Below are positions 24,665-28,186 of a DNA stretch of 64,000 nt, in pieces. The DNA comes from Actinomycetota bacterium (GTDB lineage: Bacteria > Actinomycetota > UBA4738 > HRBIN12), in the NCBI GenBank assembly GCA_040004125.1, contig JBDUBL010000001.1:3850-67849 (forward strand), given 5' to 3'. Within the stretch, counting starts at the first letter, position 1. Every line of letters begins with the position of its first letter. A model generated the notes under the pieces. The model saw nothing but the letters and a program-made list of their open reading frames with translations, was not told the DNA's origin and ran no database searches. The translations under genes were made by a program, and so were the position numbers.

Positions 24665-25915
24665 ATGACCGCCACCGAGACCGCCTTGGACCCGACCGGC
24701 GTGCGCAGCCGGTTCCCCGCCCTCGCGCGCCGCGCGCCCGATGGCAGGCCCTATGTCTGGGCCGATGCCCCCGGCGGCTCGCAGATGGTCGATACCGCGA
24801 TCGCGGCGATGACCGACCGCATGCAGGCGGGCGTATCGAACACGCACGGAGCGTTCCCGCTGAGCAAGGAGATCGACACGCTGATCGCGGACGCTCGCCG
24901 CGCCGGCGCCGACTTCCTCGGCTGTGATCCCGGCGAGGTGGTGTTCGGCCAGAACGCGACGTCGCTGCTGTTGCACCTGTCGCGAGCGTTGGCGCGCACG
25001 TGGGGGCCGGGCGACGAGATCGTGGTCACGCGGTTGGACCACGACGCGAACGTGCGGCCGTGGCTGCTGGCCGCTCGCGATGCCGGCGCCACCGTCCGCT
25101 GGGTCGACGTGCGTGCCGACGACGTGACCCTGGACCTGGACTCTTTCGACGCCCAGTTGTCGTCGCGAACGAGGCTCGTCGCCTGCACCCTGGCCTCCAA
25201 CGCGGTCGGGACCATGCCGCCGGCCCTCGAGCTCACGGCTCGTGCGAAGGCGGTCGGGGCGCTCGTGGCGCTCGACGGCGTCCACCTGTCCCAGCACCAC
25301 GCGATCGATCTGCACGGTATGGGCGCCGACATCGTCGCGACCTCGCCGTACAAATATTTTGGCCCCCACCAGGGGATGCTCGGCGTGCGGGCCGATCTGC
25401 TGGCCGCCCTCGAGCCCTACAAGCTGCGCGCCGCCCCCGACGAGGATCCCGACCGCTGGGAGACTGGTACGCAGGGCCACGAAGCGCTCGCGGGCACGAT
25501 CGCCGCGATCGACTACATCGCCGAGATCGGCGGGTCCGGACCGGATCGCCGGGCTGCCGTCGTCGCCGGTTTCGCCGCGTTCGATGCGCACGAGCGCACG
25601 CTGGCCGGGCGGTTCCTCGAGGGCGTGCGTCGGATCCCCGCCGTGCGCCTGTATGGGATCGCCGACCCCGGCCGGCTCGGCGAGCGCACGCCGACCTTCG
25701 CGGTGCGGGTCGGATCACAGCACCCGCTCGACACCTGCGCCGCACTCGCCGAGCGCGGCATCTTCACGTGGGACGGGCACTACTACGCGATCGAGGTCTT
25801 CGATCGCCTCGGGCTGCTCGAGTCCGGTGGCGCCGTGCGGATCGGGTTCTGCCACTACCACTCGCTCGAGGAGGTCGACCGGGTGCTGGAGGCGCTGACC
25901 ACGCTGGCGGGCTGA
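24665..25915 (+). CDS. aminotransferase class V / cysteine desulfurase-like PLP enzyme
   Basis: Fold-type I PLP features: [24 protein letters not shown], and [11 protein letters not shown] with a PLP-lysine context. Start at the internal ATG ([10 protein letters not shown]). Confidence 0.7.
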
Positions 25916-25971
25916 CCCGGCCGCACCCGGGGTACCATCGAGGCATCCCTCCTTTTCCAAAGGATCCCTCG

Positions 25972-27132
25972 ATGCGCATCCTCATCCTCGGCGGTGACGG
26001 CTACCTCGGGTGGCCGACCGCGCTGCGGTTCTCGAGCTGCGGCCACGACGTGCACCTCGTCGATAACTATCTGCGGCGCCGGGCTCACGTCGAGGCCGGC
26101 ACCGGCTCCTTGACCCCGATCGCGCCCGACCTCCCGAGCCGCGTGGCCGCCTGGCGGGAGGTGTCGGGGCGCACGATCGGGGTGACCGAGGGCGACCTCG
26201 GAGATTGGCACACCGTCGAGACAGTGTTTCGGGATTTCCGGCCCGACGCGGTTGTGCACTACGGCGAGATGCCCAGCGCTCCGTACTCGATGAAGGACCG
26301 GCACCACGCCGTGTTCACCCAAACGAACAACGTCGTGGGCACGCTCAACGTCCTGTGGGCGATCCGTGATCTGGCGCCCGAGTGCCATCTGATCAAGCTC
26401 GGCACGATGGGCGAGTACGGCACGCCGAACATCGACATCGAGGAAGGCTACATCCAGATCGTCCACAACGGGCGAACCGACTACCTGCCGTTCCCGAAGC
26501 TGCCCGGTTCGATGTATCACCTGTCCAAGGTGCACGACAGCCACAACATCCATTTCGCGACGCGCGTGTGGGGGCTGCGCGCCACCGACCTCAATCAAGG
26601 GGTCGTCTATGGCATCCAGACCGACGAGACGCGTCTGGACGACCGGCTGCTGACCCGCTTCGACTACGACGACGTCTTCGGAACCGCGCTGAACCGGTTC
26701 TGTTTGCAGGCGGTGATCGGACACCCGTTGACCGTCTACGGCAGTGGTGGGCAAACACGGGGCTATCTCAACATCGTCGACACCCTGCGCTGCGTCGAAC
26801 TCGCGGTCGAGCACCCGGCCGACGCCGGCGAGTTCCGCGTGTTCAACCAGTTCACCGAGTCCTTCTCGATCCTGGATCTCGCCGAGCACGTGCAGAAGGC
26901 GGGCGCCAAGGTCGGCATCGAAGTCACGATCGGCTCGGTGGACAACCCTCGCGTCGAGCTCGAGGAGCACTACTACAACCCGGCGCACACCAAGCTGCTC
27001 GACCTGGGGCTGCGACCCCACCTCCTGTCGGCAGAGCTCGTCGAGTCGATGTTCTCGGTGATCGAGCGGTTCAAGGACCGGGTCATCCCCGACCACATCC
27101 TGCCCCGCGACCGGTGGCGACCCGAGGCATGA
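25972..27132 (+). CDS. sqdB: UDP-sulfoquinovose synthase (SQD1/SqdB/Agl3-like SDR)
   Basis: [23 protein letters not shown]...[19 protein letters not shown] and [15 protein letters not shown] closely match SqdB. Start at the internal ATG with AAGGA 8 nt upstream. Confidence 0.85.
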
Positions 27133-27139
27133 GCGCCCG

Positions 27140-28186
27140 GTGACGACCGTCCGCATCCTCGGTGTCGTCGCCGCGGTCGCCTGTCTGTTCCTGGCCGCAC
27201 GCGCATACGATCGGCGACGGATCAGCCGCTTCAGCCTGCTGATCGTCGCCGCGCTGGTGCTTGGAACGGTGGTGCTCGCCATCAGGCCGTCGGTCTTCGG
27301 TCCGTTGTTCGAGTGGTTCGACGTCGCACCCGGCAACGAGCGCCGCGTGTTGTTCGTCGCGATCCTCGCGATCATCGTGCTGTTCTTCCTGATCGTTCGC
27401 GTGCAGTCCGAGGGCGACACGAACGAACGCATGATCCGGCTGCTGGTCGAGGCGCTGGGCCGTGAGCGGTTCGACTGGGATCGGGCGGCGGCGCTGCCCG
27501 AGGGCCGGCGTCTGGTCGTCGTGCTGCCGGCGTTCAACGAGGCCGACAACGTCGGCCCGGTCGTCGCGTCGCTGCCCCCGCAACTCGACGACCTGCGGGT
27601 GATCCCGGTCGTCGTCAGCGACGGCAGCGTCGATGCGACGGCCGCGCGGGCGCGAGCAGCCGGCGCCCTCGTCACCGAGCTGCCGATCAACCGCGGCGGC
27701 GGCCTGGCGCTTCGGGTCGGCTACGAGATCGCGCTGCAGCTCGGCGCCGAGATCGTGGTCACGATGGATGCCGACGGGCAACACCGAGCCGAGGAGCTGC
27801 CGGTGATGATCGCACCGATCCTGGACGGGACCGCCGACTACGTCAGCGGCTCTCGGCTGCTGGGCGACTTCGAGCGCGACAGCCTGATCCGTCACATCGG
27901 CGTGCATCTGTTCTCGCGGATCGTGTCGATCCTGACCGGGCGACGGATCACGGATCCGTCCAGCGGTTACCGGGCGGCTCGCGCAGACCTGCTGCAGCGC
28001 CTCGTGCTCGAGCAAGACCAGTTTTGGACCAGCGAGATCTTGATCGAGGCGCTGCGACACCGCGCCAACGTCGTCGAGGTCCCGATCACGATCGTGGCAC
28101 GCGCGAGCGGCATCTCGAAGAAGCCCGCGTCGCTGCGCTACGGCTGGAACTTCTCGAAGGTGATCATCCAAACCTGGCTGCGATGA
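27140..28186 (+). CDS. GT2 glycosyltransferase with an N-terminal 3-TM domain, DPM1/ArnC/GtrB-like polyprenyl-phosphate sugar transferase type
   Basis: LVVVLPAFNEADNVGPVV, VVSDGSVD and TMDADGQH motifs. GTG start 7 nt after the sqdB stop. Confidence 0.8.
   Translation: MTTVRILGVVAAVACLFLAARAYDRRRISRFSLLIVAALVLGTVVLAIRPSVFGPLFEWFDVAPGNERRVLFVAILAIIVLFFLIVRVQSEGDTNERMIRLLVEALGRERFDWDRAAALPEGRRLVVVLPAFNEADNVGPVVASLPPQLDDLRVIPVVVSDGSVDATAARARAAGALVTELPINRGGGLALRVGYEIALQLGAEIVVTMDADGQHRAEELPVMIAPILDGTADYVSGSRLLGDFERDSLIRHIGVHLFSRIVSILTGRRITDPSSGYRAARADLLQRLVLEQDQFWTSEILIEALRHRANVVEVPITIVARASGISKKPASLRYGWNFSKVIIQTWLR

Follow-up and report, generated by a model that had tools for sequence, protein, structure and literature searches.

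Organization of the locus

The window analysed here, a 64-kb stretch of actinomycetotal DNA, carries at positions 24665-28186 three co-directional genes of the plus strand which code for a class-V pyridoxal phosphate (PLP) enzyme, a SqdB-type UDP-sulfoquinovose synthase and a family 2 glycosyltransferase (GT2). A preliminary description made from the sequence had linked these genes to the metabolism of sulfoquinovose (SQ), and the coordinates that it gave were found to be exact. Gene calls were obtained from codon-position GC profiles, which yielded 57 positional calls in the window. Family-library scans covered part of these 57 calls, and the labels dcw (division and cell wall), MoxR, DinB-like and phosphofructokinase used below were read from the translations. 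The genes and domains of the locus are the following.

24665-25915, plus strand: class-V PLP enzyme of the TIGR01976 (VC1184) family, 416 amino acids (aa), from PF00266 and TIGR01976
25972-27132, plus strand: sqdB, SQD1/SqdB-type short-chain dehydrogenase/reductase (SDR), 386 aa, from phmmer against SQD1
27140-28186, plus strand: fused DUF2304(GacJ-like)::GT2 protein, 348 aa, from PF10066 and PF00535
27149-27457, plus strand: DUF2304/GacJ-like three-helix membrane domain of the GT2 protein, aa 4-106 (PF10066, 8.6e-09)
27506-28183, plus strand: GT-A catalytic domain of the GT2 protein, aa ~123-348, from alignment to the Pyrococcus dolichyl phosphate (Dol-P) mannose synthase (DPMS)

The sqdB product

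A phmmer comparison of the sqdB product with the Arabidopsis SQD1 structures 1qrr/1i24 gave a full-length match (E = 2.3e-159, 534 bits) in which residues 2-383 align to residues 3-383 of 1qrr with 60% identity. The glycine-rich NAD motif GGDGYLGW, found at residue 7, is identical to that of SQD1, and the catalytic residues T145, Y182, H183 and K186 (SQD1 numbering) are intact, as read from GTMGEYG starting at residue 144 and YHLSKVH at residue 182. The score of 480.5 bits against NCBIfam NF041015 is below the 575-bit cut-off of that model, which nevertheless gave the only strong family match; the next-best NCBIfam family, dTDP-glucose dehydratase, reached only 46 bits. On the basis of this very strong homology, the product of 25972-27132 was accepted as the putative UDP-sulfoquinovose synthase, in agreement with the preliminary description, which had called its identity unmistakable.

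The fused DUF2304-GT2 protein

The stop codon TGA of sqdB ends at position 27132 and the GT2 gene starts with a GTG at 27140, which confirms the gap of exactly 7 nt reported earlier. In the GT2 protein, Pfam detected DUF2304 (PF10066) at residues 4-106 and Glycos_transf_2 (PF00535) at residues 127-287 (4.6e-16). Hydropathy analysis indicated three N-terminal transmembrane (TM) helices, at residues 1-24, 27-57 and 65-93. These three helices had been described as a TM anchor; the helices are there, and they form a DUF2304/GacJ-like domain, not a mere anchor.

The best NCBIfam scores of the protein were obtained with the S-layer AglJ (93.5 bits), PpgS (87.2 bits) and haloarchaeal Dol-P hexose transferase (80.3 bits) models, followed at lower level by GpgS (41 bits) and ArnC (32.5 bits). 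Among sequences of the PDB, it matched the Pyrococcus DPMS (5mlz) at 2e-12 and ArnC at 1.5e-7, the catalytic part being aligned to residues 23-232 of DPMS; GpgS matched the N-terminal half only. In the AlphaFold model (mean predicted local distance difference test score, pLDDT, of 72.7), core residues ~100-235 are above 90, and a Foldseek search with this model returned ArnC first (4.6e-12), then GpgS, DPMS and GtrB. The family matches (PF00535) and those to AglJ, PpgS, DPMS and ArnC support the earlier assignment of the enzyme which follows SqdB to the GT2s of the polyprenyl phosphate (polyprenyl-P) sugar synthase type, and not to the GT4 SqdX or GT8 SqdD transferases.

The DXD motif of the protein reads DAD (residues 210-212, within TMDADGQH) and is invariant among relatives. 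The 63 relatives linked to SqdB show no variation at D210, D212, Q214, R239, R251, D272, R278, E299 and R321, and conservation reaches 98% at K327/K328.

The DUF2304 domain has a characterized counterpart. In Streptococcus pyogenes, the DUF2304 protein GacJ associates with the GT2 enzyme GacI, whose product is GlcNAc-P-undecaprenol, in a complex that withstands detergent; with GacJ, the Km of GacI for undecaprenyl phosphate (Und-P) falls from 18.7 to 1.1 uM and its Vmax is higher by orders of magnitude, and the lipid-linked sugar is then consumed by GacL, a glycosyltransferase of the GT-C type (bioRxiv 10.1101/180810). The same work reports that fusions of GacJ and GacI homologues exist in several bacteria and that Rv3632, the mycobacterial GacJ homologue, stimulates the polyprenyl-P-GalNAc synthase PpgS (bioRxiv 10.1101/180810). 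Judged from its domain architecture, the window GT2 is a single-chain fusion of the GacJ::GacI type.

Conservation of the sqdB-GT2 pair

The distribution of the pair was analysed in a scan of one genome per GTDB species, which gave 80 loci with GT2 relatives at 34-80% identity; 23 of them (L001-L023) are referred to as close and the other 57 as distant. All window proteins were searched against the 80 loci by tblastn, and SqdB was counted when a match of 43-86% identity and at least 40% coverage lay within 10 kb. The GT2 family is abundant in metagenomes. The 120 best-matching database proteins range from 343 to 358 aa, with exactly 348 aa in 114 cases, and all are at least 71% identical to the window protein.

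SqdB was found within 10 kb of the GT2 relative in 62 of the 80 loci (22/23 close, 40/57 distant), usually directly upstream and on the same strand. The actinomycetotal hosts of the GT2 relatives are uncultured and include Gaiellales, Solirubrobacterales, Nocardioides and Acidimicrobiia. The other hosts are Chloroflexota, Desulfobacterota, Myxococcota, an Acanthopleuribacteraceae metagenome-assembled genome (MAG), which we take to belong to the Acidobacteriota, Magnetococcales, Legionellaceae, Ectothiorhodospiraceae and three haloarchaea. Among the carriers that can be cultured are Deltaproteobacterium NaphS2 (L037), a Nocardioides isolate with the gene order sqdB-epimerase-GT2-GT-C, and the haloarchaea Halorhabdus salina and Halocatena pleomorpha. 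The SqdB-GT2 pair itself was detected in at least six phyla, namely Actinomycetota, Chloroflexota, Desulfobacterota, Myxococcota, Pseudomonadota and that of the Acanthopleuribacteraceae MAG. Besides sqdB and the GT2 gene, no window gene was shared with any of the 57 distant loci. Since the pair is common to distant loci while no other window gene is, it behaves as a conserved functional unit across phyla; the other neighbours, being confined to the clade, reflect clade-level synteny. The homology scores and the cross-phylum pairing are far beyond chance.

In three loci of MFD long-read MAGs (L020, L022 and L078), the sqdB, GT2 or PMT_2 gene is fragmented, probably by frameshift errors and not by pseudogene formation, so that the co-occurrence counts are slightly lowered.

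GT-C and flippase-like genes near the pair in relatives

The open reading frames of the loci were clustered and representatives were scanned against Pfam. A 545-aa PMT_2 protein, a GT-C enzyme, is encoded between sqdB and the GT2 gene in L074 (Acidimicrobiia) and L067 (Desulfobacterales). When the search was done with trimmed domains, the same PMT_2 subfamily was found within a few kb upstream of GT2 as well, for 6 loci in all, and other PMT_2 proteins lie near GT2 in L071, L077, L070, L080 (two copies), L025 and L044.

A second family was found in 22 loci. It consists of polytopic proteins of ~650 aa with ~13 TM helices and a C-terminal soluble domain. In Nocardioides and Acidimicrobiia their gene follows GT2 directly, and in loci of the Gaiellales type and of Chloroflexia it is found in the vicinity. 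Its representative is the following.

L058:10732-12711, plus strand: ~650-aa polytopic protein; members of the family are directly downstream of GT2 also in L052, L060, L064, L066, L068, L074 and L078

The Pfam scan of this representative gave no match, and a profile of the family found nothing among PDB sequences (best E = 0.86); many database relatives bear a precomputed match to PF20176 (DUF6541, function unknown). The AlphaFold model obtained for the family is of high quality (pLDDT 92.5, predicted template modelling score 0.93). With this model, every significant Foldseek match (top 21 ranks, E up to 7e-3) was a GT-C enzyme, among them STT3 (3.6e-7), the C-mannosyltransferase DPY19, AglB, ALG12, ArnT, PglB, Pmt4, AftB and ALG9. 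The GT-C fold became visible because structure prediction and Foldseek were used, the sequence profile being silent. The DUF6541-like family is thus a candidate GT-C glycosyltransferase according to its predicted structure.

LPG_synthase_TM proteins, which correspond to the flippase-type domain of MprF, are encoded in 25 of the 57 distant loci, with the order sqdB-LPG_synthase_TM-GT2 in L080 (a Legionellaceae MAG) and sqdB-GT2-LPG_synthase_TM in L041. Some lineages add Wzx-like Polysacc_synt proteins, Phosphodiest proteins of the alkaline phosphatase family, a second GT2, a sulfotransferase or a second SDR epimerase.

GT-C enzymes take lipid-phosphate-linked sugar donors at the outer face of the membrane. 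It is because GT-C genes recurrently cluster with sqdB and GT2 that the GT2 product is read as polyprenyl-P-SQ, and this clustering is the strongest indirect evidence for it.

The second SDR epimerase/dehydratase lies between sqdB and GT2 in L064:8898-9827, L074:8933-9595 (split) and L045:2161-2994, and in ~11 loci by clustering, in Nocardioides, Acidimicrobiia and Anaerolineae. Speculatively, it could be an ordinary GalE or a C4 epimerase turning UDP-SQ into a sugar of the sulfofucose type. The sulfotransferase (L067:11178-11996, Desulfobacterales) and a B12-binding radical SAM protein (L062:8507-9892, Magnetococcales) hint that these lineages may modify the glycan further.

The three haloarchaea, Halorhabdus salina, Halocatena pleomorpha and a Haloarculaceae MAG, encode full-length fused DUF2304-GT2 proteins with the same conserved residues and 36-38% identity. 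PMT_2 genes are present at L071:10971-12905 and L077:11014-12888, in both cases directly downstream of GT2, and at L070:12341-14035, with LPG_synthase_TM nearby. No sqdB was found within 10 kb of these haloarchaeal GT2 relatives (L070, L071 and L077).

Acceptor and donor of the GT2 enzyme

From the pairing across phyla and the GT-C clustering, we consider it fairly probable that sqdB and the GT2 gene form a two-step module feeding polyprenyl-P-SQ to extracytoplasmic glycosylation. Several observations weigh against this reading. The GT2 protein stays below every curated NCBIfam cut-off and is therefore not an orthologue of any named enzyme. The C-terminal third of its model is poorly predicted, and the fold search does not separate it from GpgS, a soluble retaining enzyme with a score nearly equal to that of ArnC; it is the sequence scores, the membrane anchoring and the GacJ domain which set the protein apart from GpgS, the fold alone does not. 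SqdB is out of reach in 18 of the 80 relatives, and at least eight of these SqdB-less loci have a full 10-kb upstream flank (L025, L029, L046, L059, L070, L071, L077 and L078), several others ending less than 1.5 kb upstream of GT2 or being Nanopore MAGs with broken frames. No residue distinguishing SqdB-linked from unlinked GT2s, for example a sulfonate-binding Arg or Lys, could be detected: the positions conserved at 90% or more in the linked proteins are essentially common to the unlinked ones. SQ is proposed as the donor sugar from gene linkage alone. For the window organism, only the cytoplasmic half of the pathway was observed, with no GT-C or flippase gene near the pair in the 64-kb window or in the 23 close-clade loci. 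Finally, a GT4 glycosyltransferase, the only one noticed in the window, is encoded at 59533-60651 on the minus strand, 32 kb from the pair and beside heptose genes.

The content of the window was analysed with several approaches. Searches by tblastn and phmmer with the GT-C, LPG_synthase_TM, Wzx and Phosphodiest proteins of the relatives gave chance-level matches only. Pfam scans of the remaining membrane and glycosyltransferase candidates of the window revealed neither a GT-C nor a flippase, and homologues of GtrA, Wzx and LPG_synthase_TM were equally missing. The window genes that were examined include no STT3/AglB and no WecA-like or other assembly glycosyltransferase. No sqdA, sqdC, sqdD or sqdX-like gene adjoins sqdB, and no SqdD is encoded in the window. 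Of the genes evoked in the preliminary description, neither sqdX or sqdD nor one for an oligosaccharyltransferase or flippase was found among the window genes examined, the generic GT4 lying 32 kb away. The only further glycosyltransferases noticed are the peptidoglycan enzymes of the dcw cluster.

The fact that the pair stands alone in the window and in the whole clade, with no GT-C or flippase nearby, would also fit a GT2 that makes a sulfoquinovosyl lipid directly, with diacylglycerol or some other lipid alcohol as the acceptor of SQ, in an alternative sulfolipid pathway whose end product is the lipid. Sulfoquinovosyl diacylglycerol (SQDG) is the classical fate of UDP-SQ, and some GT2 enzymes do glycosylate diacylglycerol, such as the cyanobacterial monoglucosyl-diacylglycerol synthase. 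Against this, the closest curated families and solved structures are polyprenyl-P transferases with a phosphate acceptor, all known partners of the DUF2304/GacJ domain are Und-P/polyprenyl-P glycosyltransferases, and the relatives are clustered with GT-C enzymes, which require lipid-phosphate-linked donors. Moreover, an inverting GT2 would yield a beta-SQ lipid, whereas the known SQDG is alpha. We regard the direct synthesis of a sulfolipid as very unlikely.

The nature of the donor has to be weighed separately. GT2 could use another nucleotide sugar, UDP-Glc, UDP-GlcNAc or similar, and be found beside sqdB through a shared envelope glycan or inherited synteny, UDP-SQ being used elsewhere, for example by a GT4 of the SqdX type. 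Donor specificity cannot be read from the sequence, the linked and unlinked GT2s being split by no residue, and the relatives with a full flank and no nearby SqdB would fit such an explanation, as would the presence of the GT4 gene and the extra GT2 genes and second SDR epimerase of several distant loci. However, the pair is kept across at least six phyla, and in minimal modules (the window, L041 and L080) GT2 is the sole glycosyltransferase. The two genes are separated by 7 nt, and in the window clade neither another nucleotide-sugar enzyme nor another glycosyltransferase flanks them. As for the GT4 at 59533-60651, its best matches are generic (stp3, MshA, GlgA-like) and all far below cut-off, so that, judged by these family-library matches, a role as SQDG synthase is unlikely. 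The use of a different donor by GT2 is distinctly improbable on these grounds, and the transfer of SQ to a polyprenyl-P acceptor was retained as the probable function.

The PLP enzyme and the molybdoenzyme

The gene which precedes sqdB codes for a protein matching PF00266 Aminotran_5 (5.8e-52, 177 bits) and passing the TIGR01976 "cysteine desulfurase-like" model (435 bits for a cut-off of 352). Its matches in the PDB are the mycobacterial SufS-like protein 9ddd (9e-48), the fungal FGM3 and Rv3778c (3cai, 3e-41). The PLP lysine is retained, SPYKYFGP being aligned to SGHKMLGP of 9ddd, and the catalytic-Cys loop GHHCA reads GHYYA, with a Tyr for the Cys. As the persulfide-forming Cys is replaced by Tyr, a desulfurase reaction passing through a persulfide is ruled out, and the enzyme is not a conventional cysteine desulfurase. 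The preliminary description of a cysteine-desulfurase-like PLP enzyme is hence right as to the class-V family and to TIGR01976; the Cys of SufS is absent, and the link with sqdB is limited to the clade.

In ~19 of the 23 close loci, the PLP gene precedes sqdB in the same orientation, in most cases by no more than ~100 nt. It stays with sqdB in L004, L005, L013, L016 and L023, which lack the DUF402 and membrane genes found further upstream in the window. No homologue of the PLP enzyme was detected in the 57 distant loci. The presence of the PLP gene beside sqdB even where the genes further upstream differ makes an operon partnership within the clade plausible, and its absence from the distant loci indicates that the module does not generally include it.

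The Oxidored_molyb protein encoded at 32726-33349 had been presented as a nearby sulfite-oxidase-like protein. The family assignment is real (2e-43); its link to SQ comes down to synteny within the clade, with no homologue in the 57 distant loci. Its gene is on the opposite strand, 4.5 kb away, and a phosphoesterase, a membrane protein and a PASTA kinase are encoded in between. In view of its orientation, its distance, the genes in between and its restriction to the clade, the molybdoenzyme was rejected as part of the module.

Both proteins had been tentatively related to sulfur or sulfite supply. In the most explicit form of this idea, the PLP enzyme and the molybdoenzyme would control the supply of sulfite, the Cys-less PLP enzyme being a cysteine-sulfinate desulfinase feeding SqdB. 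The desulfination of cysteine sulfinate by SufS/CsdA-type enzymes needs no persulfide-forming Cys and yields sulfite, and the retained PLP lysine, the Tyr in place of that Cys and the position of the gene upstream of sqdB in most close loci, even with differing genes further upstream, are compatible with such a role. On the other hand, the absence of both enzymes from the 57 distant loci makes the association inseparable from clade synteny, the molybdoenzyme gene lies on the opposite strand behind its three intervening genes, and the closest relatives of the PLP enzyme include Rv3778c and FGM3, proteins whose roles are either unrelated or not known. The window genes examined, a part of the 57 called, showed no cysteine dioxygenase. 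Control of sulfite supply by these two enzymes is considered unlikely.

Genomic neighbourhood

The other features of the window are listed below.

391-11676, minus strand: dcw cell-division/cell-wall cluster in the usual order, judged from N-terminal sequences
19344-22565: error-prone polymerase gene dnaE2
22576-22821, minus strand: 81-aa protein directly upstream of dnaE2
22954-23607, plus strand: DUF402/FomD-like putative nucleotide hydrolase
23691-24572, plus strand: membrane protein with ~7 TM segments and a Pro/Gly-rich N-terminus, with weak GPDPase_memb and YciC matches
28164-29858, minus strand: probably secreted phosphoesterase; its domains are Metallophos, Big_7 and two of the fn3-like type
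32726-33349, minus strand: Oxidored_molyb protein, 207 aa
59533-60651, minus strand: GT4 glycosyltransferase, with generic family matches
62016-63056, plus strand: HddA-like heptose-7-phosphate kinase
63068-64000, plus strand: fused GmhB phosphatase-GmhA isomerase

The three genes of the locus close a run of five genes of the plus strand (22954-28186) with intergenic gaps of 83, 92, 56 and 7 nt. The convergent phosphoesterase gene overlaps the 3' end of the GT2 gene by 23 nt; it was found in only one related locus, and the slot is variable, other close relatives having there an Indigoidine_A-like gene (pseudouridine-5'-phosphate glycosidase family). A scan of 22500-30900 gave no promoter-like site and two terminator-like sites for 2.4 expected, and was thus uninformative.

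The membrane gene 23691-24572 and the DUF402/FomD-like gene accompany the module in ~8 and 14 close loci, respectively. The membrane protein was considered as an acceptor-side enzyme and rejected: it is too small for a GT-C, its matches are weak and it is present in ~8 loci only. The 81-aa protein has no Pfam or NCBIfam match and is the most conserved neighbour, with 78-93% identity across the clade loci; it may be a mutasome accessory factor.

The G+C content of the window is ~69% and is flat across the region holding the dcw cluster and the SQ module. The wider neighbourhood is of the housekeeping type, with the dcw cluster (murG, ftsW, murD, mraY, murF, murE, ftsI-like, rsmH and mraZ), a MoxR/DUF58/transglutaminase trio, DinB-like and DnaE2 polymerases, a PASTA Ser/Thr kinase, a phosphofructokinase, formate-dehydrogenase-like genes and the heptose genes. 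Given the presence of the dcw cluster, the module belongs to the core part of the chromosome, not to an island. The GT4, HddA-like and GmhB-GmhA genes look like a nucleotide-heptose pathway belonging to a second glycan system, judging from their family matches.

Comparison with known systems

The closest parallel is with GacI/GacJ/GacL of S. pyogenes, which builds the GlcNAc side chain of the group A carbohydrate. In both cases a GT2 is associated with a DUF2304 three-helix partner, the window having both in one chain, and as GacL uses the lipid-linked sugar outside, so the relatives of the window GT2 cluster with GT-C enzymes. The systems differ in that the window pair includes sqdB, which would imply SQ and not GlcNAc, in that DUF2304 is N-terminal and fused, and in the GT-C enzymes of the relatives, which are of the PMT_2/DUF6541 type; in addition, no GT-C or Wzx adjoins the window pair. 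The PpgS (Rv3631)/Rv3632/Rv3779 system, responsible for the GalN of Mycobacterium tuberculosis arabinogalactan, likewise combines an actinobacterial polyprenyl-P-sugar synthase with a GacJ-like stimulator, and the PpgS model is the second best for the window GT2 (87 bits). This score is far below the 370-bit cut-off, so the two enzymes are not orthologues; the sugar differs, and the proteins are separate there and fused here.

The three-component systems GtrA/GtrB/GtrC and ArnC/ArnE-F/ArnT share the logic of a GT2, a flippase and a GT-C, and ArnC, GtrB and DPMS are the closest solved structures. Such systems are presented as a common bacterial pathway in PMC11127046. Here, the cargo would be a C-sulfonated hexose, the flippase candidate of the relatives is the MprF-type LPG_synthase_TM and not GtrA or ArnE/F, and the window holds the first component only. 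In a literature search of partial coverage, no C-sulfonated hexose was reported as cargo of three-component systems.

With the sulfolipid pathways formed by SqdB and SqdX/SQD2 (GT4) or SqdD (GT8), the window shares the first enzyme, 60% identical to SQD1. The second one, an inverting GT-A GT2 bearing the signature of polyprenyl-P transferases, is unlike the retaining GT-B/GT4 or GT8 enzymes acting on diacylglycerol. The window module is neither of the two classical sulfolipid operons, SqdB-SqdX and SqdB-SqdD.

The preliminary description had compared the module with the archaeal Agl3/Agl pathways. The resemblance holds in that, in the Agl3 pathway of Sulfolobus and for the N732 glycan of Haloferax, UDP-SQ goes to protein glycans and not to SQDG. 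It is not the closest precedent, GacI/GacJ/GacL, PpgS/Rv3632 and ArnC/ArnT being better ones: the window SqdB scores 480 for a cut-off of 575 with the Agl3-type NCBIfam model, no AglB is encoded in the window, and we know of no Dol-P-SQ step in archaea. SQ is beta-linked in Sulfolobus (PMC11407970), whereas an alpha linkage is predicted here from the succession of GT2 and GT-C. How Haloferax makes the SQ-containing glycan carried by N732 of its S-layer protein was reported as unknown (PMC9263693), and no Dol-P-SQ intermediate is described in these archaeal reports (PMC11407970, PMC9263693).

By analogy, we infer that the module would work like the GacI/GacJ/GacL, PpgS/Rv3632/Rv3779, ArnC/ArnT and Gtr systems, being an orthologue of none. 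Neither a bacterial polyprenyl-P-SQ pathway nor a function of DUF6541 was found described in our literature search, in which the coverage of subscription journals was incomplete.

Proposed pathway and significance

In the pathway that we propose, SqdB would first make UDP-alpha-SQ from UDP-glucose and sulfite, as its strong homology suggests. GT2 would then move SQ from UDP-SQ to polyprenyl monophosphate at the cytoplasmic face, a step suggested by its family, its architecture and the gene linkage. As GT2 enzymes invert, the product would be polyprenyl-P-beta-SQ. The succession of these two steps, from UDP-SQ to polyprenyl-P-SQ, appears reasonably probable. The lipid would next be flipped, possibly by the LPG_synthase_TM or Wzx candidates seen in relatives only, and a GT-C enzyme, again proposed from relatives only, would add a single SQ to an envelope glycan, a lipoglycan or a protein outside the cell. 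Since GT-C enzymes also invert, the final linkage would be alpha. In the window clade, the GT-C and the flippase would be encoded away from the pair. The core of the initial idea, a sulfoquinovosylated glycan assembled through a lipid carrier, is therefore supported by comparative genomics, namely by the occurrence of sqdB and GT2 together in 62 of the 80 loci and by the GT-C clustering.

On a larger scale, the chances seem evenly balanced that the pair belongs to a widespread system of lipid-linked SQ glycosylation, with a synthase of the GacJ::GacI type and PMT_2 and DUF6541 GT-C enzymes, present in non-phototrophic soil and sediment bacteria and possibly in haloarchaea, and to which the window clade may add a sulfite-generating PLP enzyme.

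SQ is among the most abundant organosulfur compounds of the biosphere. Its production is usually credited to phototrophs, as part of their thylakoid lipid SQDG, and many bacteria of soils, guts and marine habitats are specialised degraders of it. If the proposed pathway is true, non-phototrophs would also make SQ, as a surface-glycan decoration with a permanent negative charge, and the carriers of the pair, uncultured soil Actinomycetota, Chloroflexota, Desulfobacterota and others, would be a hidden environmental source of SQ. The cargo range of three-component glycosylation would be extended to a C-sulfonated sugar, and a testable role, that of a GT-C using polyprenyl-P-SQ, could be assigned to DUF6541. 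The SQ N-glycan of Haloferax would, in turn, gain a candidate enzyme set.

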